A DNA stretch of 64,000 nucleotides, from assembly GCA_026461395.1 (NCBI GenBank), contig JAPJNA010000048.1, positions 29,300 through 93,299 of the forward strand, in the 5' to 3' direction. The position numbers were made by a program, and so were the translations under genes. This DNA is from Chthoniobacterales bacterium (GTDB taxonomy: Bacteria > Verrucomicrobiota > Verrucomicrobiia > Chthoniobacterales > UBA6821). Below are positions 3,924 to 58,553 of the stretch, in pieces. Position 1 is the first letter of the stretch. Every line of letters starts with the position of its first letter. The notes under the pieces are model-generated. The model had not been told where the DNA came from. It saw only the letters and a list, made by a program, of their open reading frames with translations, and made no database searches.

Positions 3924-4828
3924 GTAACCAAAAGCAAGCAGTGGAAGCGCCTGCAAAACCTGTCGGCCTAGTTTCGAATCTGAGCGAGCTGTCTAAGGCC
4001 CGCCTCTCGTTCCTCGTCCTGCTAACTACGCTAGTGGGGTTCCTGCTCGGTTGGCGTGGCCCGATGGACTACACGCTACTAACGGCTACACTGCTCGGCA
4101 CAGCGCTGAGCGCGGCCGGCGCCTCAGCTCTCAATCAGTGGTTGGAACGTGATCTGGATGCCTTGATGCCCCGCACGGCGGACAGGCCTCTACCAGCCCG
4201 TAGAATGCACCCTGCCGACGCCCTACTCTTTGGTCTTCTCTGCAGTGCGAGTGGGCTCGCGCTCTTGGGGTTTTTGGTGAATCCCCTGACTGCCTTCCTT
4301 GCGGGGCTGACCATTGCGATCTACGCGGCGCTCTACACGCCGATGAAGCGATTCAGTGAGTTGAACACACTGCTCGGTGCCATCCCTGGCGCGCTTCCTC
4401 CGCTGCTGGGCTGGACTGCAGCCACCGGTCACACGGGGCTTGGGGGCTGGATCCTCTTTCTGATCCTCTGGTTCTGGCAGATGCCCCATTTTCTTGCGAT
4501 TGCCTGGCTCTACCGTGATCAATACGCCGCCGCTGGGTTCAAGATGCTCAGCACGCGTGATCCCGAAGGGTGGGCTACCGGATGGCAAGCCTTGATCTAT
4601 TCGGCGGCTCTTCTGGCCGTGTCGCTCCTGCCAGGCATGGTCGGAATGGCTTCGCCTTATTATTTCTTTGCGGCATTGGCCTTGGGTGCCGCCATGATGT
4701 TCTTGGCAGCTGATTTTCTGCGGACGCGAACCAAGGTCTCGGCACGACGGCTTTTCTTTGCCTCTATCCTCTATCTTCCCTTGCTCTTGGGAGCCCTCAT
4801 CGCCTTTTCACAGGCATCCGACGCATGA
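3920..4828 (+). CDS. ctaB: protoheme IX farnesyltransferase (heme O synthase, UbiA family)
   Basis: 302 aa. UbiA-type motifs NQWLERDLDALMPRTADRPLP and YRDQYAAAGFKML. The GTG start overlaps the ctaA stop (GTGA at 3920-3923). Confidence 0.9.
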   Translation: MSNQKQAVEAPAKPVGLVSNLSELSKARLSFLVLLTTLVGFLLGWRGPMDYTLLTATLLGTALSAAGASALNQWLERDLDALMPRTADRPLPARRMHPADALLFGLLCSASGLALLGFLVNPLTAFLAGLTIAIYAALYTPMKRFSELNTLLGAIPGALPPLLGWTAATGHTGLGGWILFLILWFWQMPHFLAIAWLYRDQYAAAGFKMLSTRDPEGWATGWQALIYSAALLAVSLLPGMVGMASPYYFFAALALGAAMMFLAADFLRTRTKVSARRLFFASILYLPLLLGALIAFSQASDA

Positions 4829-4950
4829 CGCCTCCCAAAAACCGCAAAAGTCAGATTGCAGTTCTCGTCGGCCTGATCGCTTTTGCGCTCGCCCTATGCG
4901 CTCTGGTCGTGGTCATGATGTTGCTGCGCGGCCCAGCCGTGTCGTATTGA
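4825..4950 (+). CDS. 41-aa single-pass membrane micro-protein (not in ORF track)
   Basis: Hand translation: MTPPKNRKSQIAVLVGLIAFALALCALVVVMMLLRGPAVSY*. Its ATG overlaps the ctaB stop (ATGA at 4825-4828). It has a basic N-terminus plus one hydrophobic helix and fills the ctaB-coxC gap. Confidence 0.4.
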   Translation: MTPPKNRKSQIAVLVGLIAFALALCALVVVMMLLRGPAVSY

Positions 4951-6605: not shown

Positions 6606-7043
6606 ATGAAGGTTACCGATCTCCCGGCAGTCAACGCCACCCTCAACGGGATCAGCACTCTACTGATCACTACCGGATGGATTATGATCAAGACGGAGCG
6701 CAAGCGCGCCCACGCAGCCTGCATGCTTGGAGCGATCCTGACCTCAGCCGCCTTTCTGGCCTGTTATCTAGTCTACCATTTCCTGAAGGCTGGTCATGTC
6801 ACTTACTTCACCTATCCGGGGTGGCCCAAGGCCCTCTACCTCTTGATTCTTGGCACCCACACACCCCTTGCGATCGCTGTGGTCCCGATGATCATCCTCA
6901 CCATCATCCCGGCTCTTCGTCAGCGCTTTGATGCCCACAAGAGGATTGCACGCTGGACACTCCCTATCTGGCTCTATGTTTCGGTTACGGGTGTGCTCGT
7001 TTACTTCATGCTCTACGTATGGTTTCCCTCCGCGAAGATCTGA
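6606..7043 (+). CDS. DUF420 family membrane protein (CtaM-like, oxidase-associated)
   Basis: 145 aa, 4 predicted TM helices. The N-terminus LPAVNATLNGISTLLITTGW resembles DUF420 proteins commonly linked to cox operons. Confidence 0.7.
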   Translation: MKVTDLPAVNATLNGISTLLITTGWIMIKTERKRAHAACMLGAILTSAAFLACYLVYHFLKAGHVTYFTYPGWPKALYLLILGTHTPLAIAVVPMIILTIIPALRQRFDAHKRIARWTLPIWLYVSVTGVLVYFMLYVWFPSAKI

Positions 7044-7090
7044 CCGGCACGAATTCCCCTCCGCCCGGTTCGGGGATCGAGCGGACCGGT

Positions 7091-7504
7091 ATGCTGGATG
7101 CCTTTGCCCACGACACCCGCGAAGATGTCTTGGTGCTTGCGATGTTCGAGACCCGTTCATGGGAGCATGGAGAGCGACAACTCTTCCAACTCCAGGAGAA
7201 GCTGAATGCCTATGTCTCCTTCATCCTAGACGGTGAGATGAAGGAAAACTTTCCCCATCTGCAGGGAAAACCTGTGCGTATTGAACTCCGTACTTCCGAG
7301 GAACCTTCTGAGAAGGCAATGGGCTTTCTTGGAAGGGCCCGCGACCAACTCGCACTCCAGCAGATCAGCCTTGAGGTTGTCGTGATCGGCGAAGTTGATG
7401 CAGACAGTGGGGGTTGCTGCGGAGGAAATGCGGAGACCGGGTGCTGCGGCAGCTCTCAGGTTGTTGATCAGCAGGCGAATGGTTCCTGCGGGTGCGCCCA
7501 TTAA
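7091..7504 (+). CDS. hypothetical cytoplasmic protein with Cys-rich C-terminal tail
   Basis: ORF 7019..7504. The ATG at 7091 avoids overlapping DUF420. The tail DADSGGCCGGNAETGCCGSSQVVDQQANGSCGCAH contains two vicinal CC pairs plus CGC-AH. Confidence 0.5.
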   Translation: MLDAFAHDTREDVLVLAMFETRSWEHGERQLFQLQEKLNAYVSFILDGEMKENFPHLQGKPVRIELRTSEEPSEKAMGFLGRARDQLALQQISLEVVVIGEVDADSGGCCGGNAETGCCGSSQVVDQQANGSCGCAH

Positions 7505-7524
7505 TTTCGCCATCTTTTCAGCCC

Positions 7525-9435
7525 ATGCTTGAATCCATCACCACGACGCGTCCCCGCAATGTCGATTGGAAGCGGGCAGCCGCGATCCTCTACGGCGACT
7601 GGGGCACCAGCAAGGCTTATGTCATCGGTCTGGCTTTTGCGGTAGCTGGTTACAGTTCACCGTGGCTCATCGGAGCAATGTGTCTACTTACGGCGCTTGT
7701 GGGGGTCAATTACATGGTCATCTGCCGGCATTATCCGAACGGCGGCGGCGTCTACGCCAGCGTCCGCCATCGCTCCGAGATCATCTCGATCGTGGGCGCA
7801 TTTCTGCTCATTGCGGACTATATCGTGACGGCAGCTGTCAGCGCCCTCTCCGCTTTCCTATATCTTGGAGTGCCTCACCCAGAGATTTTTGCCGCTGGCT
7901 CCATCGCGATTATCGGGGCACTGAATTACTTTGGTCCCAAACATACCGGCGGTGCCGCTATCCTTGTTGCTATTCCCACGTTCATTGTGGTTGGTCTGCT
8001 CGGTCTCCTAGCTATTCCCCATCTGGGAGACGCAGTGATTCACACGCAACCTCTTCATGACGGCTTTCTTCATAATTGGAATGCTTTCGTAGCTATTGTT
8101 CTGGCGCTTTCAGGCGTCGAGGCGATCGCCAACTCGACGGGTGTGATGAAGCTCAATCCGGGCAGCACGCTTGAAAAGCCGAATGTTTCCAAGACCGCCA
8201 ACAAAGCCATTATCGTCGTAATGCTGGAGGTCTGTCTCTTTACGGCCCTGTTGGGCCTGGCCATGGCGGCGCTTCCGGGAATGGTTGTGGCCAATGGAGA
8301 AGTCAACGCCCCCGGTGCCGAGGGGGTTCGCGATTACATGCTCCGCTACATGGCCCAGATCTTTGCAGGCAATCTCTTTGGGCCTATCATCGGACACATT
8401 GCGGCCTGGACTGTCAGCATCGTTTTCGGTGTCCTTCTGCTAAGTGCCGTGAACACGTCGATCGTGGCGCTAAGCGGAATTTCTTTCCTGATGGCCCGCG
8501 ACCAGGAGATGCCGCCGATCTTTGCAAAGCTGAACTCCTTCGGTGTCCCGAATGCGGGCCTTTTCTTCGCCGTCCTTGTGCCTGCAGGTTTAGTCATCGC
8601 TGTGAGCGACATGTCGGGTCTTGCTGATCTCTATGCGGTAGGCGTGGTGGGAGCCATTGCGGTAAACCTTGGGGCAACTAGCACGGACTGGAAGCTTGCC
8701 CTAAAAAATCACGAGCGCGCACTCATGTTCGTGACCTTTGTGATCATGGCAGTGATTGAGATCTCCCTCTTCATCGACAAGCCGAATGCCAGGATCTTTG
8801 CCTTCACGGTGCTAGCTATTGGCCTGGTGCTCCGCGGTCTAGCCAAGGAAAGCGCGGAACGAAAGGCCAAGGCAGCACAAGAGGCGGCCCTGGAGGCGGC
8901 CGTTCTTGCCATGGAGAGTGGAGGCAAGACTTCCACGACAATAATAGCCAGCGAGCCTGCTAATGCATCGTTGACGAAAATTCCTACTGCCACCGGAACG
9001 GCCACGGCGCCGGTACCTGTTCCGAAAGTCTACAATGGCCCCATCCTCGTTGCAGTCAGAGGTAAAGGGCGCACTCTAGATTTTGCTGTCAAGGAAGCCG
9101 CTGAAAACGGCCAGCCTCTCTATGTTCTTTTCGTCCGTGAACAGCCGGTTATCGCGCCGGGTGATCGGCGCAGGAAATGGACCGAGGACAAGCAAGCCCG
9201 TGAGACCTTCGAATCATTAAAAGACAAGGGGCTGGGTGAGACCATTATCCCCTGCTACGCCGTGAGTGATGCTCCGGCTCATACCATCGCCGATCTTGCC
9301 TCCACGATCGGAGCGGAGCGGGTCCTGCTCGGCGCTCCCCAGCGGAACACTCTACTCCATGTACTGCGAGGGAATATCATCCGCGAGGTGGCATCGCTTC
9401 TGCCGGATGATATTTATCTTTTGGTCTGCGTGTAA
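7525..9435 (+). CDS. APC-superfamily permease fused to a C-terminal universal stress protein (USP)-like domain
   Basis: ORF 7492..9435 with ATG at 7525. About 12 TM helices with YPNGGGVYASV, typical of APC transporters. The C-terminal ~140 aa (ILVAVRGKGRTLDFAVKEAAENGQPLYVLFV ... RVLLGAPQR) is USP-like. Confidence 0.75.
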   Translation: MLESITTTRPRNVDWKRAAAILYGDWGTSKAYVIGLAFAVAGYSSPWLIGAMCLLTALVGVNYMVICRHYPNGGGVYASVRHRSEIISIVGAFLLIADYIVTAAVSALSAFLYLGVPHPEIFAAGSIAIIGALNYFGPKHTGGAAILVAIPTFIVVGLLGLLAIPHLGDAVIHTQPLHDGFLHNWNAFVAIVLALSGVEAIANSTGVMKLNPGSTLEKPNVSKTANKAIIVVMLEVCLFTALLGLAMAALPGMVVANGEVNAPGAEGVRDYMLRYMAQIFAGNLFGPIIGHIAAWTVSIVFGVLLLSAVNTSIVALSGISFLMARDQEMPPIFAKLNSFGVPNAGLFFAVLVPAGLVIAVSDMSGLADLYAVGVVGAIAVNLGATSTDWKLALKNHERALMFVTFVIMAVIEISLFIDKPNARIFAFTVLAIGLVLRGLAKESAERKAKAAQEAALEAAVLAMESGGKTSTTIIASEPANASLTKIPTATGTATAPVPVPKVYNGPILVAVRGKGRTLDFAVKEAAENGQPLYVLFVREQPVIAPGDRRRKWTEDKQARETFESLKDKGLGETIIPCYAVSDAPAHTIADLASTIGAERVLLGAPQRNTLLHVLRGNIIREVASLLPDDIYLLVCV

Positions 9436-50463: not shown

Positions 50464-50670
50464 TTAACTCTTTGGCTTCCAGAGTGCGGCGTCGAGGCAA
50501 GCCCAGAGATGGATGATCCAGCCCAGTAGGAACACCCAGAGAATCCCCGTGAAGACAAAGAAGAGGATGGCGGGCAGCAGGCGGCCCTGAAGGAGTTGTC
50601 CCAGTCCGGGGATGAAGAAGCTCGCCAAAGAGGCGATTACGTTGCCCGCGGTTCCTTGTCCATTGCTCAT
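50464..50670 (-). CDS. 68-aa two-TM membrane protein
   Basis: The 189-aa ORF is trimmed to ATG 50670: MSNGQGTAGNVIASLASFFIPGLGQLLQGRLLPAILFFVFTGILWVFLLGWIIHLWACLDAALWKPKS. The upstream part of the ORF is low-complexity. Confidence 0.45.
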   Translation of the reverse strand: MSNGQGTAGNVIASLASFFIPGLGQLLQGRLLPAILFFVFTGILWVFLLGWIIHLWACLDAALWKPKS

Positions 50671-50760
50671 GACTGAATTCTTCAATAACAAGGCCAACGC
50701 TGTCGAGCTTCTCTCTTGCCTGATGCGGTCCCTCCGTGAAGCCTCTCTCAATATCAACTT

Positions 50761-51441
50761 ATGGAGACTCTCTTCACCCCCGCACATATCCATCTGGCCA
50801 TTAACCATGTCCCGATCATCGGCCTGGCTGTCGCCTGCCTGCCTGTCCTGATCGGTATTCTCTTCCATAGTCGTGGAGCCCTTGCTTCCGGCCTGCTCGC
50901 CGTGATTCTGTGTGCCGGAACCATGCCCTTCATCATAGAGACGGGAGAAGAGGCTTATGAATCCTTTGTTGATGGATCGATCAGTCCCGGGATGGATGTT
51001 GCGGGCAAAGCTGCCTTCCGGGAGCACAGCCATCGTGCCAATTTCACCGCCCCTGTGGTCTACGCTGCGGGGATTCTGTCGCTGGTGGCGCTTCTTGCCC
51101 TAATCAAGTTTCCCCGTCAGGCCGCATGGATCGGCTGGGCTGTTCTCGTGGGAAGCGCTCTCTCCATCGCCCTGAGCGTCTGGACGGCAGAGGCCGGAGG
51201 CCGGATCCGACATCCGGAGTTCCGACCCGAACTGAAACCGACTGCTCAACCTCAACAACAAGGACAAGGCGCTCCCTCGGTGCCAGAACTTATGCCCTCA
51301 CCCTCAACTTCGCCCTCACCTTCGCCGTCACCTTCAGCAAGCATGACTCCCCTGCCCCCTCTACCCGCGCCGCCGGCCTATGTAGTGCCAGGCACCTTAC
51401 TTGCGCCAGCAGGATCAGGTGCCGCTCCCACGACGAACTGA
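50761..51441 (+). CDS. four-TM membrane protein with Pro/Ser-rich C-terminal tail
   Basis: 226 aa. The N-terminus HIHLAINHVPIIGLAVA is followed by hydrophobic helices. The tail reads PSPSTSPSPSPSPSASMTPLPPLPAPP. Confidence 0.5.
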   Translation: METLFTPAHIHLAINHVPIIGLAVACLPVLIGILFHSRGALASGLLAVILCAGTMPFIIETGEEAYESFVDGSISPGMDVAGKAAFREHSHRANFTAPVVYAAGILSLVALLALIKFPRQAAWIGWAVLVGSALSIALSVWTAEAGGRIRHPEFRPELKPTAQPQQQGQGAPSVPELMPSPSTSPSPSPSPSASMTPLPPLPAPPAYVVPGTLLAPAGSGAAPTTN

Positions 51442-51646
51442 GTGAGCGCTCAGGATGATCGCATGGATCATCTCGCTGGAGAGATCCATGAGCAGGCTGA
51501 CAAATCCCAAAACCCAAATTCCTCGAGGAATAGCGCTGCGACTCAGAATAGAGCGGACTAGATCCTTTCTCACAACGGCAACATATCTCCAGTGTTGTTC
51601 AAAAACCACGCCTTTGGTTTCTCGAAAACAACTTGGTCAAAAATAG

Positions 51647-51668
51647 TCAGGGGGATTTCTCCGTGTGC
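51647..51668 (+). promoter_or_regulatory. conserved promoter-like motif, copy 1 (candidate ECF-sigma-dependent promoter)
   Basis: TCAGGGGGATTTCTCCGTGTGC lies ~55 nt upstream of the Cys-rich peptide gene. A near-identical element is at 53291-53314. Confidence 0.4.
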
Positions 51669-51723
51669 GGTGAATTACTTCTGGAACGGGAATAGTTCCC
51701 GCTCTCAACAAAACACCACACAC

Positions 51724-51888
51724 ATGAAAACATTGATCAAAGTGGGCGCCATGCTCGCCCTCATCGCTGGACTCGGACTGGCCACCGTCTCCGCTGCGGA
51801 TAGCTGCAAGGCCTGCAAGGGTTGCGCAAAGAGCTGCAGCTCCTGCGCGAAGTGCTCGGATGGCAAGTGTGCTTCTTGCTGTAAGTAA
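51724..51888 (+). CDS. 54-aa secreted Cys/Lys-rich micro-protein (metallothionein-like composition)
   Basis: Internal ATG of ORF 51592..51888: MKTLIKVGAMLALIAGLGLATVSA|ADSCKACKGCAKSCSSCAKCSDGKCASCCK. It has a signal peptide, and the ~30-aa mature part carries 9 Cys and 6 Lys. Confidence 0.6.
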   Translation: MKTLIKVGAMLALIAGLGLATVSAADSCKACKGCAKSCSSCAKCSDGKCASCCK

Positions 51889-51960
51889 CGAGATCATTCA
51901 ACGTGGCGGAGGTGGTGCTGAAAAAGCCTGCCTCCGCCCGCTGAGTTTCTTACCTTCCAA

Positions 51961-52263
51961 ATGATGAATCCTATGAACGAACTGACAGACCTACTGCAGG
52001 AGTGGACTCCGAACGCAGAGCCTGGTTCCGGTTTTAACCGTTCCGTCTGGGCTCGCATCGAAAACGCCGAGAGTAGCGGTGCTATGGGCTTATCCTTCTT
52101 CTCTTGGCTCCAGCGGCTAGCTGTGCCCCGGATTGCAGTGACCTGTGTTGCCGTGGCCCTCTTCGGCGGCATTTTGGTCGGAGGAATGCAGGCCCGTTCT
52201 TCTGAAGAGGAGCGCTATCTTCTCTCGTTGAAACCCTTCGCCTCCGTCACGCACTCGCACTGA
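51961..52263 (+). CDS. small single-pass membrane protein, candidate anti-sigma factor (CnrY-like position)
   Basis: 100 aa. A ~50-aa cytoplasmic N-terminus, one TM helix (IAVTCVAVALFGGILVGG) and a short periplasmic tail. It lies directly upstream of the periplasmic sensor-like gene and the ECF sigma gene. Confidence 0.5.
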   Translation: MMNPMNELTDLLQEWTPNAEPGSGFNRSVWARIENAESSGAMGLSFFSWLQRLAVPRIAVTCVAVALFGGILVGGMQARSSEEERYLLSLKPFASVTHSH

Positions 52264-52273
52264 TTCTCGATCC

Positions 52274-52705
52274 ATGAAACGCGGCTTTCTTATTCTTCTG
52301 GTCGTGATCATCGCAGGAGTCGGAGCGGCCTTGGTGACGAGAAATCTTTTGCGAGGTCCATCCTCGGCATGGCTTTGCCATCAATACGGACTCTCTCCTC
52401 AAAAGGCAGGAACGATCGAGGGGCTACAACAACAATACGGCTCTCGATGCGGCCCCTACTGCAACCAGATGTGCGAGGCCAATGCCCGTCTCGAACAACT
52501 CTCGCTGGAGGCTGGGCTAGGCAAGCAGAGTATCACTCCGGCACTCCGTGAGGCCGTGGCGGAGACCGATCGTATCCGTACCGAGACACGGATCGTGATG
52601 CTCGAGCATTTTTATGCCGTGGCGGGAGAACTCCCTCCCGAGAAACGCAGGGCTTATTTGCTCAAGGTGCTTCCCTTGGTGATCGACTCCTGCGGCTCAC
52701 GATAA
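52274..52705 (+). CDS. membrane-anchored periplasmic heavy-metal-sensor-like protein (Spy/CpxP/CnrX superfamily)
   Basis: 143 aa. N-terminal TM anchor, then a helical pattern with LGLSPQK ... and ... LPPEKRRAYLLKVL, typical of the LTPEQ-repeat Metal_resist family. It carries C35-H36 and C59-x3-C63-x3-C67. Confidence 0.6.
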   Translation: MKRGFLILLVVIIAGVGAALVTRNLLRGPSSAWLCHQYGLSPQKAGTIEGLQQQYGSRCGPYCNQMCEANARLEQLSLEAGLGKQSITPALREAVAETDRIRTETRIVMLEHFYAVAGELPPEKRRAYLLKVLPLVIDSCGSR

Positions 52706-52718
52706 AGGGACCCCTTTC

Positions 52719-53273
52719 ATGTCCGAAACCGAACAGGAGGACCGTGACGCGATGGCTCTTCTGGCTGGCGGAGAGGATCTCGCTCTCAATGCGATCATGG
52801 AGCGCTGGAAGAGTCGCCTCATTGCCTACCTCTACCGCTTCACGGGGAATGAAGCGACGGCCTTAGAACTGGCCGAGGAAACCTTCGTGAGAATCTATCA
52901 AAGCCGGGCAAAATTCCGGGCGGGCGGTCAGTTCTCGACCTGGCTCTTTGGCATTGCCGCCAATCTGGCCAGGAACCATCTTCGCTGGCAAAGACGCCAT
53001 CCGACGGTTGTGATCGAGGAGGCCGACACCGTGGCCTCCGAGGGGGATCCGCTAAAGGCTGTCGAATCACGGGAACGCGAGCAGGCCGTGCGCACGGCCA
53101 TCGCCGCCCTTCCTCCTGACCTCCGTGAGTCCTTAATCTTGAGCGAATACGAGCAACTCTCCCAGTCCGAGATCGCTGTCATCGCAGGATGCTCGGTTAA
53201 GGCAGTCGAGCGCCGACTCAGTCATGCCAGGGAACTTCTAAGAAAAGAACTCTCACGCTATCTGCGTGGTTGA
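52719..53273 (+). CDS. ECF (group IV) RNA polymerase sigma factor
   Basis: 184 aa. Region 2 (LIAYLYRFTGNEATALELAEETFVRIY, FSTWLFGIAANLARNHLR) and region 4 (LILSEYEQLSQSEIAVIAGCSVKAVERRLSHAR). Confidence 0.9.
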   Translation: MSETEQEDRDAMALLAGGEDLALNAIMERWKSRLIAYLYRFTGNEATALELAEETFVRIYQSRAKFRAGGQFSTWLFGIAANLARNHLRWQRRHPTVVIEEADTVASEGDPLKAVESREREQAVRTAIAALPPDLRESLILSEYEQLSQSEIAVIAGCSVKAVERRLSHARELLRKELSRYLRG

Positions 53274-53290
53274 AGAAATTTTGATAAATA

Positions 53291-53314
53291 TCACGGGGGA
53301 TTTCCCCGTTTTCA
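53291..53314 (+). promoter_or_regulatory. conserved promoter-like motif, copy 2
   Basis: TCACGGGGGATTTCCCCGTTTTCA lies ~200 nt upstream of the 99-aa secreted Cys/His protein gene. It shares AAATA..TCA.GGGGGATTTC.CCGT.T.C with copy 1. Confidence 0.4.
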
Positions 53315-53517
53315 CTCGGGATGTTCAAGCTAGCGAAGCAGAGATGCCTCGGAATCTGGGGTAAGTGTTTTTATTAGGGGGAGGTAAGCGCTTCCACTCC
53401 TATCGTGCCTCCCCCTCGTGGTTTAAGTTGCCTCACAGTGGAATCACCCACACCTCCAAAGCCGGTTCAAGGCGGAACGGGTCATGGAGCAACAAATAAA
53501 CCGCCAATCAAAACCCC

Positions 53518-53817
53518 ATGAAAAATAGAGTCCGTTTCCTATCAGCGGTGGGAATGATGAGTCTTCTCACCATCCTGCCCTCCCAATCGTCATTCGCGGC
53601 ACCTCCCAAGGATGGAGCCGTGATGTGCGATAAGTGCAAAATGGTCATAGTGAAAGTCCCGAGCCGCGTCACTGCAAAGAGTCAAACGGTCGTCTACCAT
53701 GATGTGAAGACCATGGAGTGTCCTGACTGCCACTCGGCCATGGAGAACTTCTTCAAGACCGGCAAGCTCAAGCACACCTGCACCCATTGCGGTGGAACAA
53801 TGACTGTCTGCCACTGA
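53518..53817 (+). CDS. 99-aa secreted protein with three CxxC pairs and a terminal C-H
   Basis: Signal peptide MKNRVRFLSAVGMMSLLTILPSQSSFA, then CDKC ... CPDCH ... HTCTHCGG ... VCH. Confidence 0.6.
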   Translation: MKNRVRFLSAVGMMSLLTILPSQSSFAAPPKDGAVMCDKCKMVIVKVPSRVTAKSQTVVYHDVKTMECPDCHSAMENFFKTGKLKHTCTHCGGTMTVCH

Positions 53818-53850
53818 TTGGGATGCTCAATGATTAGAGACGGCATTAGA

Positions 53851-53879
53851 CCTCTCCTCGTAAGAGGAGGGGTTTTTTG
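53851..53879 (+). terminator. intrinsic terminator after the 99-aa gene
   Basis: CCTCTCCTC-GTAA-GAGGAGGGG followed by TTTTTT. Confidence 0.65.
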
Positions 53880-54009
53880 CTTAGAGGAGATTCTACAAGG
53901 GTAAGTGGATTGCTGATGCCTTTGGAGCGTCACATAGAGTGATGCCCTGATCACTTAGCATGCAGCGCCATCAATCTGCCGGCGCGAATTTGAATTTAAT
54001 CTCTTCTAG

Positions 54010-54768
54010 TTAGTGGCTTTTTGTAGCGGCACGTTGAGGGATTGTCACCATGATGACTCCCATGATGGCGAGTAAGACCGCGGATGCGGTGAATCGACTC
54101 AGAGCAAGGCCGCCATGGTCATGCGGCTTGTCTAGGAAATCCCCGACCACTGCTCCTAGGGGACGCGTCAGGATGAAGGCGGCCCAGAAGAGCAGCGTGC
54201 GCGACAGGGATGTCTTCCAGTAAGTAACTGCCACGATTACAAGCAGACCGCCGAAGATCGCCGCGCTACCCAAGTATCCTAGGCCCGCGGAGTCTGAAGT
54301 CCAATCACCCAGAGCCGTTCCCAGAGTCTGGGAGCACATGATCGTGAACCAATAGAAGAGCTCGGCCTTGGGCGTGTTGACAGTCTCTACGGCCACAGTG
54401 CCCAGGGTCTTCTTCCAGGCATAGAGCGATGCCAGCAGAAGGCCGAGAAGCAAGGCCGATCCTCCCGTGTAGCCGATGCCGAGCGATCGGTCGCAGAAAT
54501 CGGCCAGCGTAGTACCGACTGTCGTTGTGGCGATGATGGTCACCCAGTAAATCACCGGATAGAATTTCTTTGCAAAGATCTGAGTCAGGACCGCAATCAC
54601 GAAGATCACCGCAAAGATTCCTGTGCTCAGGAGATAACCCAGATTGAGAGACATCGAGACGGCATCTCCGCCGGTCTCCCCGAGCGTGGTGGATAGAATT
54701 TTTAGCACCCAGAAGCCCATCGTGACTTGGGGAACTTTGCTGAGGGATCCGTTTGTCTGCCTATTCAT
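54010..54768 (-). CDS. eight-TM membrane protein built from four internal repeats (COG4705-like)
   Basis: 252 aa. Four repeats of (F/Y)W-x6-T/S-x-G-x3-(G/A)D ... LG(Y): GFWVLKILSTTLGETGGDAV, IYWVTIIATTTVGTTLADFC, FYWFTIMCSQTLGTALGDWT and LFWAAFILTRPLGAVVGDFL. Confidence 0.6.
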   Translation of the reverse strand: MNRQTNGSLSKVPQVTMGFWVLKILSTTLGETGGDAVSMSLNLGYLLSTGIFAVIFVIAVLTQIFAKKFYPVIYWVTIIATTTVGTTLADFCDRSLGIGYTGGSALLLGLLLASLYAWKKTLGTVAVETVNTPKAELFYWFTIMCSQTLGTALGDWTSDSAGLGYLGSAAIFGGLLVIVAVTYWKTSLSRTLLFWAAFILTRPLGAVVGDFLDKPHDHGGLALSRFTASAVLLAIMGVIMVTIPQRAATKSH

Positions 54769-54795
54769 GTGTTGCCTCCACTGTTACCATTCAAG

Positions 54796-56811
54796 TTACG
54801 TCTCAATATCCTTGGGAAGCTTCAGAGCCAGCAAGCGGAGACTGTTCAGTACCACCAGCAGAGTGCTTCCCTCGTGGGCGGCAACGCCCAAGGTAAGGGG
54901 GACTGGAAAGAAAAAAGCGCTGCAGACCATGACGACCACGGTTCCTAGGGCGACCACGATGTTCTGGTTGATGATCTTCTTGGCTTGAACGCTCAAGAGG
55001 CGGGCCAGCAGGAAATTCTCTATTCGATCGTTCATCAGCACAACCTCCGCCTGTTCGAGGGCGGCGTCGGAGCCTCGGGCCCCCATGGCCACGCCAACAT
55101 CGGCGGCCGCGATACAGGGCGCGTCGTTCACTCCATCCCCGATCATGGCGACGCGGACACTCCCCCCTTCTTTGAGGTTCTCGATAGCCTCGACTTTTCC
55201 ATCGGGTGAGAGTTCGGAGAGAATCTTGCCGATCCCGACTTTCTCACCGATCAGTTGGGCCGCCTCCCTGTGATCGCCGGTGAGCATGACCGTACGAACG
55301 CCCTGCTCATGAAGCCTGCGCAGGGTGGTGATCGATGCAGCGCGGATCTCGTCCGAGAAAATCATCCGGCCGAGGAGTCCCCTCCCCGCTACCCAGACGA
55401 CCGCGCCAGCTGACTTCCCTGCTGGGGGAAGATCGTCTTCGTGGAAGCCGCCCAGCCCGAGGACGAGCTTACGGCTACCCATCACAAAGGTCTCCCCATC
55501 GATATCAGCACGGACTCCCTTGCCTAGGATGGTTTGGAAGTTCGCCACCTCCATGGCGGGGATACCCCATGTCATGGCGATCCGACGGATCGCCCGGGAG
55601 AGCGGGTGCTCGGAGAGGCGGGCCAAGGAATGGGCCACTGAGCGAAAACGGGTTTCATTTCCCTTAAAGATTTCGACTTCCGCGAGGGTCAGGTTTCCCG
55701 AAGTCAGGGTGCCGGTCTTATCGAGGGCCACGACACCGATATCTGCCAGCGTCTCGATGGCCGCACCTCCCCGGTAGAGGATGCCGCGTCGCGCCCCACT
55801 TGCGATCGCCGAGAGGATCGCCGAGGGGACCGAGAGGACCAGGGCGCAGGGAGAGGCCACCACCAGCAAGGTCATCGTGCGATAGAAGGCGCTGGCCGTG
55901 CCGTCACGTTTCTCAAACGGCGCGAGGCCCAGTAGCAGCCACCAGACAAAGAACATGATGGTACAGATTAAGAGGATCGTCCACGTGTAGCCCGTGCCGA
56001 ATCGGTCCGTGAAGCGCTGGGAGGGGGCCTTCAGGTTCTGGGCATTCTGGATGAGGCGGATGATCTTCTGCAGGGAGCTCTCGCTGGCTGCCCTAAGAAC
56101 CCTTCCCTCCATGACTCCCCAGAGATTGATTGTTCCAGAGAGGGCTGTGTCTCCGAGGCGCTTCGATACCGGCATGGCCTCACCGGTCATGTTCGACTCA
56201 TCGCAGGCGCTCTCCCCCTTGATCACCTCCATGTCGGCAGGGATCTGTTCCCCGGTAGTGACGAGAATCACCATGCCGGGTGTCAGCTTCTCCACCGGAA
56301 CGGACTCCTCGACTCCATTGCTGAGGACACGTGCGGTCTTGGGGGCTCCGCGGAAGAGCGCGTCGATGGCCTTCTTGGTACGCCCCATCGCGAAGTGCTC
56401 CATGGCACCCGAGGCAGAAAAGAGAAAGAGAAGCAGGGCCCCCTCACGCCAGGCGCCGATCACTCCCGCTCCGACAGCCACAGCAAGCATCAGAAAATGG
56501 ACGTCGAGTTGTCCTTTGCGAAGGCGTTCCCAGGCATCGCCTGCCGCATCCCATCCCCCGCAGAGGTAGGCCAAGAGATAGAAAACCGTGGCACAAGCTC
56601 GGTTGTGGAAGAGAAGTTCACTGATCAGGCCCAGCCCTCCAAAGACGAAACACCCGGCCGCCAGAATAGCCATCAAACGCCACTCCTCGTGGTCATCTTT
56701 CTCTTCATTTCCTAATGGGGAGCGTCTCCGCGCGACATACTTCACCCAATACTCAGAGCATCCCCCTCTCAGTCGAGAGATCAGGGAGGGAGTTGAATCC
56801 TCGGTTGGCAT
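54796..56811 (-). CDS. heavy-metal P-type ATPase, P1B-4 subtype (Co/Zn/Fe-class exporter)
   Basis: 671 aa. DKTGTLT phosphorylation site, TGD, GDGVNDAP. The TM4 motif is SPC (VVASPCALVLSVP) and the final TM carries HEGSTLLVVLN. There is no N-terminal HMA domain. This combination defines P1B-4 pumps. Confidence 0.9.
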   Translation of the reverse strand: MPTEDSTPSLISRLRGGCSEYWVKYVARRRSPLGNEEKDDHEEWRLMAILAAGCFVFGGLGLISELLFHNRACATVFYLLAYLCGGWDAAGDAWERLRKGQLDVHFLMLAVAVGAGVIGAWREGALLLFLFSASGAMEHFAMGRTKKAIDALFRGAPKTARVLSNGVEESVPVEKLTPGMVILVTTGEQIPADMEVIKGESACDESNMTGEAMPVSKRLGDTALSGTINLWGVMEGRVLRAASESSLQKIIRLIQNAQNLKAPSQRFTDRFGTGYTWTILLICTIMFFVWWLLLGLAPFEKRDGTASAFYRTMTLLVVASPCALVLSVPSAILSAIASGARRGILYRGGAAIETLADIGVVALDKTGTLTSGNLTLAEVEIFKGNETRFRSVAHSLARLSEHPLSRAIRRIAMTWGIPAMEVANFQTILGKGVRADIDGETFVMGSRKLVLGLGGFHEDDLPPAGKSAGAVVWVAGRGLLGRMIFSDEIRAASITTLRRLHEQGVRTVMLTGDHREAAQLIGEKVGIGKILSELSPDGKVEAIENLKEGGSVRVAMIGDGVNDAPCIAAADVGVAMGARGSDAALEQAEVVLMNDRIENFLLARLLSVQAKKIINQNIVVALGTVVVMVCSAFFFPVPLTLGVAAHEGSTLLVVLNSLRLLALKLPKDIET

Positions 56812-56872
56812 TACTGAAACCTAGTGAATAGGCTGGAAATGAAAATAGGAGAATCGGATGACGGTGAAGACG

Positions 56873-56901
56873 CGAAAAACCGGATGGAGAGCCGCTCCAT
56901 C
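56873..56901 (-). terminator. candidate intrinsic terminator between the OM barrel gene and the ATPase gene
   Basis: Minus strand reads GATGGAG-CGGCT-CTCCATC followed by CGGTTTTTCG. Confidence 0.45.
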
Positions 56902-57012
56902 TTGGCAACCGCGCAGAGACGATGGAGGTGTGGCTGTACTTCGTGCTTCTCGGCACTCGGCTTTGAAAGCGAACAGCACCACCCCCCGGCGTCCAAATCA
57001 CAGATCCATTTT

Positions 57013-57987
57013 TTAGAACATTAAGCTAGCAACAACCTTCACAGTGCAGGGGGCGATCAACTGAGCCCCGACAACATTGTTCATCACGGGCAACTCGGCG
57101 TCGGCATAGATTCGGATCTTTTTGAAGTCGAACTCGATGCCGGGTGAGAGCGAGAGCTGCTGATAGCCGGAGTTGCCGGTGTTGGCCGCAGGCCCGTAAT
57201 CGGAGGCTTTGTTGGCAAAGAGGACCTGCCCGATGGGGCGGATCTTCACGCCCCCCAGACCAAGTCCCGTGTTGTAGATGCCCGCTGCTGCATTCACAGC
57301 CAGGCCAGGAATGTATCCGGCTTGGTTGGCAACCGGAGCGTCGAGCTGTGCCTGACTAAACCAGGTCCAGTCGCTGTTTTTCGCAAACTTATGGTAGTGA
57401 AAGTAGCCGAAGAGGATATCCATGCTGCCGGTGCCGATCTGGTTAGCTCGTGAGACATTTTGCTGCTGCCAGTAGCCGGTAGGCAGTTTGAGTCCCAAAT
57501 TGAATCCCGTGTTCATGTTCTCGTTCTTTGAGAATCCGGTGTAGAGGGCATTCACCTGGATGTCTCCCATTCCCCACCATTGGGTGGTGGTTGGGGTGTG
57601 GACATGCACATGCTTTCCATTAACCACCTTATTGGAGGCTGCCTCGTAACGGTAGAAACGCTGTGCATAAGGAACCGTCAGTGATGCGCCCCAATTATTG
57701 TTCCAGTAGTATTGCACGCCCTGGGTGAGCCAGGAGGTCTGCAGAAGTTCGTCGTGGTTCCTTCCCGCCCCCTTGCCTACTTTCTTCAGACCCTGCCAGT
57801 TCTGGCTTTGGGACATGAAGGTGTATTGAGTCCAGGCAATGCCGCCGGGACCGTTTGGGAAGAGGTAGCTGGTACCGACGTCTTGAGAGGTGCCGCATCC
57901 TGCGCTGCAGGCCAGTACAGATGGGGAAAGAAGGTTAAGGGCAAGCAGCAGGACAGCTGCGAGGAATGTAGAGAAAAGAGATTTCAT
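57013..57987 (-). CDS. outer-membrane beta-barrel protein (MetA-pathway/transporter-like family)
   Basis: 324 aa. Signal peptide ending SVLA|CSAGC, Gly/Tyr/Asn-rich strands and a C-terminal aromatic residue (VVASLMF). Confidence 0.65.
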   Translation of the reverse strand: MKSLFSTFLAAVLLLALNLLSPSVLACSAGCGTSQDVGTSYLFPNGPGGIAWTQYTFMSQSQNWQGLKKVGKGAGRNHDELLQTSWLTQGVQYYWNNNWGASLTVPYAQRFYRYEAASNKVVNGKHVHVHTPTTTQWWGMGDIQVNALYTGFSKNENMNTGFNLGLKLPTGYWQQQNVSRANQIGTGSMDILFGYFHYHKFAKNSDWTWFSQAQLDAPVANQAGYIPGLAVNAAAGIYNTGLGLGGVKIRPIGQVLFANKASDYGPAANTGNSGYQQLSLSPGIEFDFKKIRIYADAELPVMNNVVGAQLIAPCTVKVVASLMF

Positions 57988-58163
57988 GGGAAATGGGTGT
58001 TAAATTTTTGTGTTGTGGCGCGCAATGGATGAGCAGGAAGCACGACCTTGAGGGCATCGGTCCTGATCCGGCCTGCACATGACCGGATTTCGATTGGGAA
58101 CACGCCCCTCGAGACACATGGTCGCCCTTGAAGTAAGGGGATCCAGCCGCGATGGGGGAGGCG

Positions 58164-58553
58164 TTAAGCCTGGATGGGCACTGGGACGGGCGGAGCAAAA
58201 CAGAGCTCCGGCATCGAAACAAACGGTGCTGGCCCATATGTGAACGGGCTGGAAAGAGGAGAGGGCAACGCGGATCCCAAGGAGACAACAAAGACCTCTG
58301 CTTTCTTGTCGACCTTGACGGTGACGGGAGCTTTTTCCTCATGCGCTTGGGCTGAGGCAATTTTCTTACACATCGAGCAGGGGTGCTTGCCGTCGAAGGT
58401 CTTTGTGACGGCTTCAGCGATGGATCCTGTGCGGGAGAAGTCCTTCACCATCCCAGCCCACGCCACGCTATGGAGCATGGCCCAGTGACCGCCAGTAATC
58501 ATAAAGAGAGCCAGCGCCATCACCATGGTCATGATAGGGCGACGGACGTTCAT
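58164..58553 (-). CDS. small membrane-anchored protein with HW..LH..AW motif and CxxC
   Basis: 129 aa. N-terminal TM (MTMVMALALFMITGGHWAMLHSVAWAGM), then FDGKHPCSMCKK. First gene of the apparent operon with the OM barrel. Confidence 0.5.
   Translation of the reverse strand: MNVRRPIMTMVMALALFMITGGHWAMLHSVAWAGMVKDFSRTGSIAEAVTKTFDGKHPCSMCKKIASAQAHEEKAPVTVKVDKKAEVFVVSLGSALPSPLSSPFTYGPAPFVSMPELCFAPPVPVPIQA

Follow-up and report, generated by a model that had tools for sequence, protein, structure and literature searches.

A Predicted Cnr-Type ECF Sigma Factor Module with a Cysteine-Bearing CnrX-Like Sensor and a Secreted Cysteine-Rich Peptide in a Chthoniobacterales Genome

Introduction

Which signal is read by a small extracytoplasmic function (ECF) sigma factor module of a freshwater Chthoniobacterales bacterium, whose sensor-like protein carries cysteines and whose first gene encodes a Cys-rich secreted peptide, and which genes answer to it? 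The module lies at positions 51647-53817 of a 64,000-nt stretch of DNA, the whole of which was analyzed and is called the window below (GCA_026461395.1, contig JAPJNA010000048.1, positions 29,300-93,299 of the forward strand); all coordinates follow the numbering of the window, except those given with a related locus, and related loci carry L numbers. An open reading frame (ORF) listing with translations returned the five plus-strand ORFs with the lengths, positions, and residues first described for them:

51724-51888, plus strand: pep54, ORF of 54 aa with a signal peptide, first gene of the module
51961-52263, plus strand: as100, ORF of 100 aa, single-pass protein, putative anti-sigma factor
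52274-52705, plus strand: mr143, ORF of 143 aa, membrane-anchored, CnrX/NccX-like
52719-53273, plus strand: sig184, ORF with Sigma70_r2 and r4_2, ECF sigma factor
53518-53817, plus strand: zr99, ORF of 99 aa, secreted, with three CxxC motifs, double zinc-ribbon-like

Our analysis makes it fairly probable that this is a Cnr-type transmembrane metal-sensing switch, which combines a thiolate-type sensor with a secreted Cys-rich peptide and probably responds to a thiophilic metal.

Results and Discussion

The Sensor Candidate and Its Cysteines

By profile and predicted fold, mr143 is a CnrX/NccX-like sensor. More than 140 homologues at 58-98% identity were found in metagenomes, and among species-representative genomes the protein occurs in those of freshwater Verrucomicrobiota, Spartobacteria, and Chthoniobacterales assembled from metagenomes. 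Against PF13801 (Metal_resist) it scored 20.1 bits, below the gathering cut-off of 29.2 though the alignment was full-length, and many homologues at 58-74% identity do have PF13801 in precomputed annotation; database names for relatives are "periplasmic heavy metal sensor" (NCBI) and "Heavy-metal resistance" (JGI). A profile of 30 homologues matched NccX (4clv) at E 0.004 with the transmembrane segment inside the alignment, NccX and CnrX being the only meaningful solved relatives in the profile search. The AlphaFold (AF2) model of mr143 has a predicted local distance difference test score (pLDDT) of 84.8, and its 15 best Foldseek matches were all CnrX or NccX, with template modeling scores of 0.6-0.74 normalized to the target. 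Comparison with CnrX of pMOL28 by hhalign gave a probability of 72% and an E of 3.4e-5. Profile match, predicted fold, and hhalign therefore agree on the CnrX-superfamily assignment that had been made from the sequence at the outset.

Membership in this superfamily also admits a reading in which mr143 would be a Spy/CpxP-type chaperone or envelope-stress accessory, the module would answer general envelope stress, and the peptide would be an unrelated secreted protein or the precursor of a modified peptide. PF13801 stands within the Spy/CpxP/ZraP superfamily, the JGI name of one relative is "Spy/CpxP family protein refolding chaperone," CpxP is among the distant fold matches, and the sigma factor is most RpoE/AlgU-like among solved structures. 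However, CpxP ranks far below the 15 CnrX/NccX matches (E ~1), mr143 has an N-terminal membrane anchor as in NccX, no modification enzyme is conserved beside the peptide gene, and the gene order, the promoter, and the downstream efflux operon described below are of the Cnr type, all of which makes this reading very unlikely.

The original prediction held that mr143 carries C35-H36 and C59-x3-C63-x3-C67 rather than a His/Glu/Met metal site. The Ni/Co ligands of CnrX map onto mr143 by hhalign as follows, each with its state among the 30 homologues:

CnrX H42: mr143 S31, variable
CnrX H46: mr143 C35, nearly invariant
CnrX E63: mr143 Q52, variable
CnrX H119: mr143 H112, invariant
CnrX M123: mr143 V116, invariant

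One ligand in five is thus retained (H112), and C59, C63, and C67 occupy the positions of CnrX R70, E74, and R78 on the long helix. Invariant among the homologues are C59, C63, C67, C140, H112, M66, and M109, with C35 nearly so, and H36 is not conserved. Ligand mapping and conservation together support the replacement of the His/Glu/Met site by conserved cysteines; within the cluster as first drawn, C35 and C59/C63/C67 hold and the H36 of C35-H36 drops out. Lack of conservation of the Cys cluster had been set beforehand as the outcome that would count against the idea, and the cluster was found to be conserved.

A profile search of 1.84 billion representatives gave the wider family of mr143 as 425 clusters at E<=1e-3, of which 168 reach E<=1e-10. 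Most of its distant members have His at the CnrX E63 column, C59, C63, a Cys in an "ECR" motif, M109, and H112, and often a His-rich tail; the clade of the window is without the E63-column His and the ECR Cys and has C35, C67, and C140.

Such a residue set raises the question of whether periplasmic thiol/disulfide (redox) stress is sensed and not metal, in which case the anti-sigma factor would be switched by the redox state of the cysteines in the sensor, with the peptide as a sacrificial redox buffer. The residues that distinguish the clade of the window are cysteines, and the Ni/Co ligands of CnrX are mostly lost. Yet H112, the counterpart of CnrX H119, is kept along with M109 and M66, the wider family has His at the E63 column, and the composition of the peptide is metallothionein-like. 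Intrahelical disulfides are also disfavored between cysteines spaced i, i+4, and i+8 on one helix, as in the ladder of mr143. Redox sensing is therefore, in our judgment, unlikely; the neighboring genes that bear on it are taken up together with the signal.

Gene Order, Anti-Sigma Candidate, and Sigma Factor

The likeness to cnrYXH that was first proposed for the gene order is supported, with a putative anti-sigma gene at -2 and the CnrX-like gene at -1 before the sigma gene both in the window (51961-53273) and in related loci. Every related locus that covers the whole module keeps the order peptide, 100-aa protein, 143-aa protein, sigma factor (L001-L014, L035, L049, L066, L072, L085, L089, and L092), so that co-occurrence of the four genes in other genomes, proposed as a check, was found in all loci spanning the module. 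Gene order with a secreted first gene reaches into the wider family, and the first protein is Cys-rich in three of the four distant loci read. A layout similar to that of the window was seen in the distant relatives L017, L022, L023, and L025 (four contexts read): L025 encodes a 104-aa secreted protein with a 7-Cys C-terminus, an anti-sigma-like protein, a PF13801 protein, and an ECF sigma factor, the first gene of L017 a 121-aa secreted protein with a Cys-rich C-terminus, and that of L023 a protein with ASPKVRQML repeats and no Cys, while L022 has no first gene among the gene calls.

Two observations on distant loci are recorded here in their own right. The longer secreted first-gene proteins of L017 (1150-1515) and L023 (3195-3596) repeat (D)GI(S/T/A)ASPK(L/V)R(Q/E)(M/V)L, a repeat with no match in precomputed Pfam annotation. 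In L020 an 81-aa ORF (4628-4873) that begins MECGMCCDTMTCC and has 7 Cys lies directly after the CnrX-like gene and before OEP, CzcB, and resistance-nodulation-division (RND) genes, and no sigma gene is called near that CnrX-like gene.

The 100-aa protein stands at position -2 in all loci. It has a cytoplasmic part of ~50 aa with the helix-like motifs LxxLLxxW and FxRxVWxRI, both of which are also present in the wider family, followed by one transmembrane segment and a periplasmic tail of ~25 aa; CnrY, for its part, has a 45-aa cytoplasmic domain with two helices (PMC6851896). Position and architecture make as100 a putative anti-sigma factor, CnrY-like in its build. In sig184, Sigma70_r2 and r4_2 are present, TIGR02937 is matched above its cut-off, and the identity to CnrH is 29% (E 3e-14).

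The Secreted Peptide and Its Transcript

Behind its signal peptide, pep54 has a mature part of 30 aa, ADSCKACKGCAKSCSSCAKCSDGKCASCCK, in which 9 residues are Cys and Phe, Tyr, Trp, and His are absent. At ~30% Cys in CxxC and CC motifs, and rich in Lys and Ser, the mature peptide is metallothionein-like by the composition criteria applied. It has no Pfam or NCBIfam match. The gene is the first of the module in L001-L014, with a fragment in L016, and substitutions number 150, 54, and 305 at codon positions 1, 2, and 3, respectively. This third-position excess, together with the ORF, signal peptide, and Cys pattern conserved in orthologues, indicates that pep54 is a real coding sequence, and the claim that a Cys-rich secreted peptide leads the operon extends to its relatives as well. 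Two RNA features flank the gene:

51905-51938, plus strand: intercistronic stem-loop between the peptide gene and the as100 gene, consensus of 11 pairs
51683-51705, plus strand: 5' leader hairpin, GGA-CGGGAA-TAG-TTCCCG-CTC, at the predicted 5' end of the transcript

Compensatory changes were observed at 4 of the 11 pairs of the stem-loop across 12 loci, its GAAAAAGCCTG loop is conserved, and the 78-nt intercistronic stretch that contains it folds at -35.6 kcal/mol (z -6.0); a clear U-run is lacking 3' of the stem-loop. Its probable function, which we infer from these features, is that of a partial terminator or mRNA 3'-end stabilizer uncoupling the level of the peptide from that of the regulators, and it probably lets the peptide be made in excess over them. 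The leader hairpin (-9.7 kcal/mol, z -2.5) has counterparts at the same spot in relatives, with partly compensatory changes and weak consensus support for a covarying RNA element; the leader 3' of it is C/A-rich and without a Shine-Dalgarno sequence. Rfam gave chance-level matches only across 51300-54000.

A more far-reaching proposal, which we offer tentatively and regard as possible, is that pep54 would be a periplasmic metallothionein-like peptide and the main output of a thiolate CnrX-type sensor, possibly even its co-ligand: the Cys ladder of the sensor would read the peptide, metal-loaded or apo, and not the free ion alone, in a self-buffering Cu(I)/Ag(I)/Cd circuit widespread in Verrucomicrobiota. 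The extent of the wider family that bears on this consists of the 168 clusters at E<=1e-10, with four contexts read. If true, this would be an undescribed and widespread mode of periplasmic metal handling in that phylum; a signal-peptide-bearing metallothionein-like peptide, if confirmed, would add a periplasmic thiol buffer to the metal-resistance devices of bacteria.

The Promoter-Like Element P1

A short element shared by two positions, one upstream of the operon and one upstream of the 99-aa gene, was part of the original prediction. Exactly two copies of GGGGGATTTCYCCGT are present across the 64 kb, at 51650 and 53295. Extended to 24 nt (51641-51664 and 53286-53309), the two copies agree at 79%, and no direct repeat within the surrounding 5 kb is longer; repeats of 17-20 nt with 80-88% identity are also present in the vicinity, the 24-nt repeat is only modestly above background, and the pattern test of the motif was post hoc. 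Site 1 is accordingly judged real because it is conserved, not because it is repeated. Its parts are:

51638-51678, plus strand: P1, ECF-type promoter-like element, in 16 related loci
51638-51645, plus strand: A-rich stretch of P1, from the upstream alignment
51650-51657, plus strand: -35-like box of P1, GGGGGATT, from the upstream alignment
51669-51678, plus strand: -10-like box of P1, GGTGAATTAC, after an 11-nt variable spacer

In the 16-locus alignment the conserved element is GGGGGATT-N11-GGTGAATYAC, with a fuller right half of G(C/T)GGTGAAT(C/T)AC, and it stands at the same distance from the peptide gene in all 16, ~74 nt from the start codon. The shared element is thus present at the two positions claimed for it, but its conserved part is bipartite and reaches 51678, and the "CCGT" included in its first description falls in the variable spacer.

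For the cnr system, experiments have defined the CCGTATA box of cnrYp and placed a transcription start 23 bp upstream of cnrY (PMC13492112). The two CnrH promoters of pMOL28 read GGGGGAGT-N11-CCGTATA (cnrYp) and GGGGAAGC-N11-CCGTATA (cnrCp), and P1 matches both in the GGGGGA of the -35 box and in the 11-nt spacing (8+11 register); the -10 box of the window is GGTGAAT, and the distant relatives L017, L023, and L025 have -10 boxes of the GGCGTAT(T)A type. The architecture of the promoter-like element upstream of the operon thus corresponds to that of experimentally defined CnrH promoters, and this match, together with the CGTAT(T)A boxes in relatives, is the strongest argument that P1 would be an autoregulatory ECF promoter. 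On the model of cnrYp, transcription is predicted to start at ~51682, at the foot of the small leader hairpin.

Other ways of reading the motif were tried and set aside. A scan for the sigma-70 consensus gave nothing at either motif site; in a sigma-54 reading the GG and GC elements would stand ~14 nt apart instead of 10, within the non-conserved spacer; and taking "CCGT" as the -10 box with "AAATA" as the -35 box founders on distant loci, in which CCGT is not conserved. Nor was the motif found in the text of the ECF classification supplements. Pattern scans and scans with a position weight matrix (PWM) returned no other full copy in the 64-kb window, for instance upstream of the ATPase, outer-membrane protein, or 129-aa protein genes of the neighboring cluster. 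An exact-pattern scan of metagenome contigs gave 82 instances, with a Cys-rich peptide ORF downstream in 44, degenerate variants of the peptide ORF in 3, a YHS gene downstream in 4, and the end of the contig in 9; about 20, roughly the number expected at random for 18 specified bases, were in unrelated contexts and were set down to chance. Within the sigma ORF itself, a promoter-like GGGGGATC-N11-GTCGAATCAC was observed at 53042-53070 (core PWM score 19.2 of 32.4). Because it is seen only in close relatives, it is judged probably fortuitous, although it could give a sigma-dependent internal start toward the 99-aa gene.

The Second Site and a Lost Efflux Promoter

The second copy of the motif had been taken for a whole promoter that serves the 99-aa gene, and on both counts this was not sustained, since the shared stretch proved to be a -35-like box with a non-conserved spacer, the -10 box is absent, and the site is orthologous to a promoter that precedes YHS-cusBA genes in relatives:

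53281-53313, plus strand: site 2, with the A/T-rich stretch, the -35-like GGGGGATT, and the spacer kept and the -10 box lost

With a PWM built from 13 non-redundant sites (maximum 32.4, full listing threshold 0), site 2 scored 18.5 in the left half and below 0 with the full matrix; the left half of a genuine second site, that of L011, scored 20.4. Complete second sites follow the sigma gene in L011, L035, L049, and L092, always 1658 nt after P1, and a variant complete second site is present in L066 and L072, whose sigma factor is 95% identical to that of the window. In all of these loci the second promoter precedes genes for a YHS protein (PF04945), an adaptor with HMBD and CusB-type domains, and a TIGR00914 CusA/CzcA-family RND pump, a layout (P1-peptide-Y-X-H-P2-YHS-B-A) that parallels cnrYp-cnrYXH-cnrCp-cnrCBA. 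The window has only the -35 half, at 53295, and no pump 3' of it. From the sigma stop through GGGGGATTTYCCYGTTT (...CCYGTTT), the window can be aligned with L066 and L072 base for base, and beyond that point it diverges. Because this break in homology falls exactly where the -10 box and the YHS leader begin, site 2 is read from the alignment as what remains of a second promoter that was truncated on replacement of the efflux cargo.

As a full promoter, then, site 2 failed both by PWM and by its orthology to a YHS promoter of which it is a truncated counterpart, and it is quite unlikely that it works as an ECF promoter of the 99-aa gene, which would give a regulon of secreted thiol-rich proteins with two promoters and autoregulation. 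Sites 1 and 2 do have the A/T-rich stretch, the -35-like box, and much of the spacer in common, the left-half score comes near that of L011, and among homologues of the 99-aa gene that of L033 has the motif and that of L008 the -10 box. However, the -10 slot of the window, ACTCGGGATG, shows no match and varies in L002 and L003 where its flanks are conserved, the distance to the start codon is 223 nt as against ~74 nt for P1, the homology to L066 and L072 ends inside the promoter, and a different conserved element lies upstream of the 99-aa gene.

Compatible with a promoter relic is the idea that site 2 is now the intrinsic terminator of the sigma operon, which we consider rather doubtful. It forms a hairpin (ACGGGG-GATTT-CCCCGT, with a 6-bp stem and a 5-nt loop) that is followed by TTTT and lies 20 nt after the sigma stop codon, and the hairpin is kept with a T5 run in L002 and L003, the change in L003 falling in the loop. 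Against this, the 6-bp stem is short, z values of -1.25 to -0.5 are not above shuffled controls, the hairpin scan listed it on the minus strand only, and L066, L072, and L011 have a promoter at the same position without such a hairpin.

The 99-aa Protein

The zr99 protein gave weak zinc-ribbon Pfam matches. Its gene adjoins the sigma gene in the window and in L001-L004, L008, L013, L085, and L089; the two genes share a strand in the window and in L001-L004 and lie on opposite strands in L008 and L013. The features that flank the zr99 gene are:

53358-53391, plus strand: conserved element 5' of the 99-aa gene, with TTTTTATTAG between two GGTAAG-like repeats 23 nt apart
53848-53885, plus strand: terminator-like hairpin of the intrinsic type, a 12-pair stem then TTTTTTG, 3' of the zr99 gene

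The element at 53358-53391 is common to the window, L002, L003, L008, and L013 and unrelated to the ECF motif, and it may be the binding site of another regulator. No full ECF motif lies upstream of the 99-aa gene of the window; there is an 8/10 match to the -10-like box, GTGGAATCAC, at 53438-53447, ~70 nt upstream of the start and with no matching -35 box. In L033, GGGGGATT-N11-GGCGAATGAC lies ~115 nt upstream of the start of the 99-aa homologue (PWM score 25.0 of 32.4), which, exact matches and one training site aside, scored highest of 1.46 million strand positions, and the homologue in L008 has GGTGAATTAC with a partial -35 box. In L004 the 99-aa gene abuts the sigma gene, a deletion at 6990-7060 having taken away the 245 nt between the two genes along with ~12 codons from the start of the 99-aa gene; just after the sigma stop there is a possible TTG start, and the gene is probably co-transcribed with the sigma operon there. 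We therefore see zr99 as probably a facultative member of the regulon whose ECF promoter is not recognizable in the genome of the window, and the proposed regulon of thiol-rich proteins survives at the level of the family (L033, L008, and L004) but was not found for the window itself.

Neighboring Genes

A convergent cluster follows the module:

54010-58553, minus strand: convergent cluster, context of the module
58164-58553, minus strand: 129-aa membrane protein with HPCSMC, no family match
57013-57987, minus strand: predicted outer-membrane protein of 324 aa, no Pfam match
54796-56811, minus strand: P1B-4-type ATPase with SPC and HEGST motifs, TIGR01525 at 535.8 bits against a cut-off of 346
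54010-54768, minus strand: DUF347 protein, by family match

The signatures of P1B-4 ATPases are SPC in transmembrane segment 4, HEG(S/G)T in transmembrane segment 6, and the lack of an N-terminal metal-binding domain; the translation of 54796-56811 contains VVASPCALV and AAHEGSTLL and gave no HMA domain match. An ATPase cluster directly downstream had been noted at the start: it is present, on the minus strand, but adjacent only in the closest relatives and in L085 and L089, and the cargo that separates the 129-aa gene from the ECF module varies from genome to genome.

A membrane protein of 129-135 aa with GGHWAxLQxVAW...DGKHPCSMC always heads the convergent cluster (window 58164-58553; L008, L010, L012, L013, and L014), with an M29-like aminopeptidase gene beyond it. 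The cargo consists of the outer-membrane protein, the P1B-4 ATPase, and DUF347 in the window, of SCO1 and CusF-SCO1 in L014, and of prepilin-like and PEP-CTERM genes elsewhere; in L014, a CusF-SCO1 fusion and a second SCO1/SenC protein are encoded on the minus strand at 7020-8587, immediately downstream of and convergent with the ECF module. The outer-membrane protein at 57013-57987 has a Cys cluster right after its signal peptide (CSAGCG; CACGCG in L006) and recurs near the module in L003, L006, L007, and L014. On the other side of the module, two antisense ORFs overlap at 50464-51441, one on the plus strand (50761-51441, 226 aa, multiple transmembrane segments, SPSPSPSPS tail) and one on the minus strand (50464-51033, 189 aa, weak DUF6677 match). 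Both look conserved by tblastn because they share DNA, and the gene calls recorded for this region in L001 are on the minus strand only.

A Proposed Mechanism and Its Signal

Put together, these results suggest the following course of events. At rest, as100 would hold sig184 at the membrane through its two short cytoplasmic helices, and its periplasmic tail would touch a dimeric CnrX-like sensor. A thiophilic metal would bind a thiolate/imidazole site made up of C35, the C59/C63/C67 ladder, H112, M109/M66, and possibly C140; Cu(I)/Ag(I) would be the best guess, and Cd, Zn, Hg, or Co would also be allowed. The sigma factor, then freed, would transcribe its own operon from P1, and the stem-loop after the first gene would let the peptide outnumber the regulators. 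The role of the peptide would be that of a metallothionein-like buffer in the periplasm or of a chaperone, lowering free metal and thereby resetting the sensor. In the window, the second promoter and its efflux operon would have been replaced by the secreted protein with three CxxC motifs and, convergently, by the P1B-4 ATPase cluster.

The nature of the signal is suggested by the Cys/His/Met residue set, the CusB/CusA-like pump with YHS, and the CusF-SCO1 and SCO1 genes in L014, which all point to a thiophilic metal; the neighborhoods of L020 and L023 include CzcB and ACR_tran genes, and that of L022 includes ZnuA and DtxR genes. For redox sensing, in turn, multihaem cytochrome genes adjoin L025, and SCO1 and redoxin-like genes adjoin L014, but the only recurrent target of the second promoter is the YHS-CusB-CusA heavy-metal efflux operon.

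Several points weigh against a Cnr-type switch for a thiophilic metal. Four of the five metal ligands of CnrX are lost, so that metal binding by mr143 itself is a step that we infer from sequence, and its five periplasmic cysteines could equally make disulfides. No sequence similarity links as100 to CnrY, to Protein Data Bank chains, or to Pfam families (hhalign to CnrY gives a probability of 0.4%), and the closest solved relatives of sig184 are of the AlgU/RpoE type, at ~1e-24 and better than CnrH. The neighbors suggest different metals, with a Cu/Ag-type pump, YHS, and CusF on one side and a P1B-4 ATPase of the Co/Zn/Fe type on the other; the ATPase here and the ZnuA and DtxR genes of L022 keep other metals open. 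The window has no other full motif that would mark an output of the module beyond its own operon, and all related loci come from metagenome-assembled genomes or metagenomic contigs.

Comparison with Known Systems

That the combination had not been described before was overstated in the original prediction, for systems of this kind have been catalogued and NCBI already names relatives as periplasmic heavy metal sensors. ECF sigma factors with PF13801 proteins are listed as ECF111, 241, 281, 290, and 291, and the -2/-1 layout defines ECF291 (PMC7826278; bioRxiv 10.1101/2019.12.11.873521 supplement). New are the chemistry of the sensor ligands, a first gene for a secreted Cys-rich peptide, the phylum, and the decay of the second promoter, none of which was found described in the open-access literature searched; nothing relevant came up there on periplasmic metallothionein or on CnrX homologues of the Cys type in Verrucomicrobia. 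Metal discrimination by a periplasmic sensor and class II anti-sigma signaling have their structural paradigm in CnrX, and the same fold, gene order, and promoter architecture with a Cys site, in a lineage that is natural and widespread, offer a comparison for how ligand chemistry sets metal selectivity. The promoter motif and the sigma/anti-sigma pair, from an under-studied phylum, are possible orthogonal parts, and the decay of a promoter after cargo replacement provides a clear example of that process.

Closest are cnrYXH-cnrCBAT of Cupriavidus metallidurans pMOL28 and nccYXH, systems of group ECF291, which share the order of anti-sigma factor (-2), sensor (-1), and sigma factor and the CnrX/NccX fold of the sensor. 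Also shared with cnr are a small single-pass protein with a cytoplasmic part of ~45-50 aa and a short periplasmic tail, a GGGGGA -35 box at 11-nt spacing from the -10 box, and, in relatives, a second promoter directly after the sigma gene that drives a heavy-metal RND pump. In contrast to cnr, only H119 of H42, H46, E63, H119, and M123 is kept here, H46 has become Cys, and a Cys ladder and a C-terminal Cys have been added; as100 does not resemble CnrY in sequence, identity between sig184 and CnrH is only 29%, and the -10 box is GGTGAAT where cnr has CCGTATA. The secreted Cys-rich peptide is an extra first gene, the pump of relatives is CusB/CusA-like with YHS and no outer-membrane factor gene seen, and the host phylum is Verrucomicrobiota, whereas ECF291 is reported as 98% Proteobacteria.

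ECF281, ECF290, ECF111, and ECF241 (Casas-Pastor et al. 2021) share an ECF sigma factor, an anti-sigma factor with one transmembrane segment, a PF13801 protein, and a predicted role in metal stress. Their order, however, is sigma factor, anti-sigma factor (+1), and PF13801 protein (+2), or PF13801 is fused; no Cys-rich peptide gene is described for them, and their listed promoter motifs differ (GGAACTT-GTCTAA, ACGG-CGT, and TTGAACCT-GTCTAAA).

With metallothioneins (vertebrate MT; SmtA/BmtA, MymT, and PmtA), mature pep54 shares a length of ~30 aa, 30% Cys in CxxC and CC motifs, richness in Lys and Ser, and the lack of aromatic residues. It has no homology to the zinc-finger fold of SmtA, its metal binding is a proposal, and its signal peptide and predicted periplasmic location set it apart from the known bacterial metallothioneins, which are made without a signal peptide. 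CorE and CorE2 of Myxococcus xanthus and anti-sigma factors of the ZAS type such as RsrA likewise use cysteines to couple metal or redox state to ECF activity; there the cysteines face the cytoplasm, either within the zinc site of the anti-sigma factor or within a C-terminal extension of the sigma factor, whereas here they reside in a separate, periplasmic sensor of the CnrX fold.

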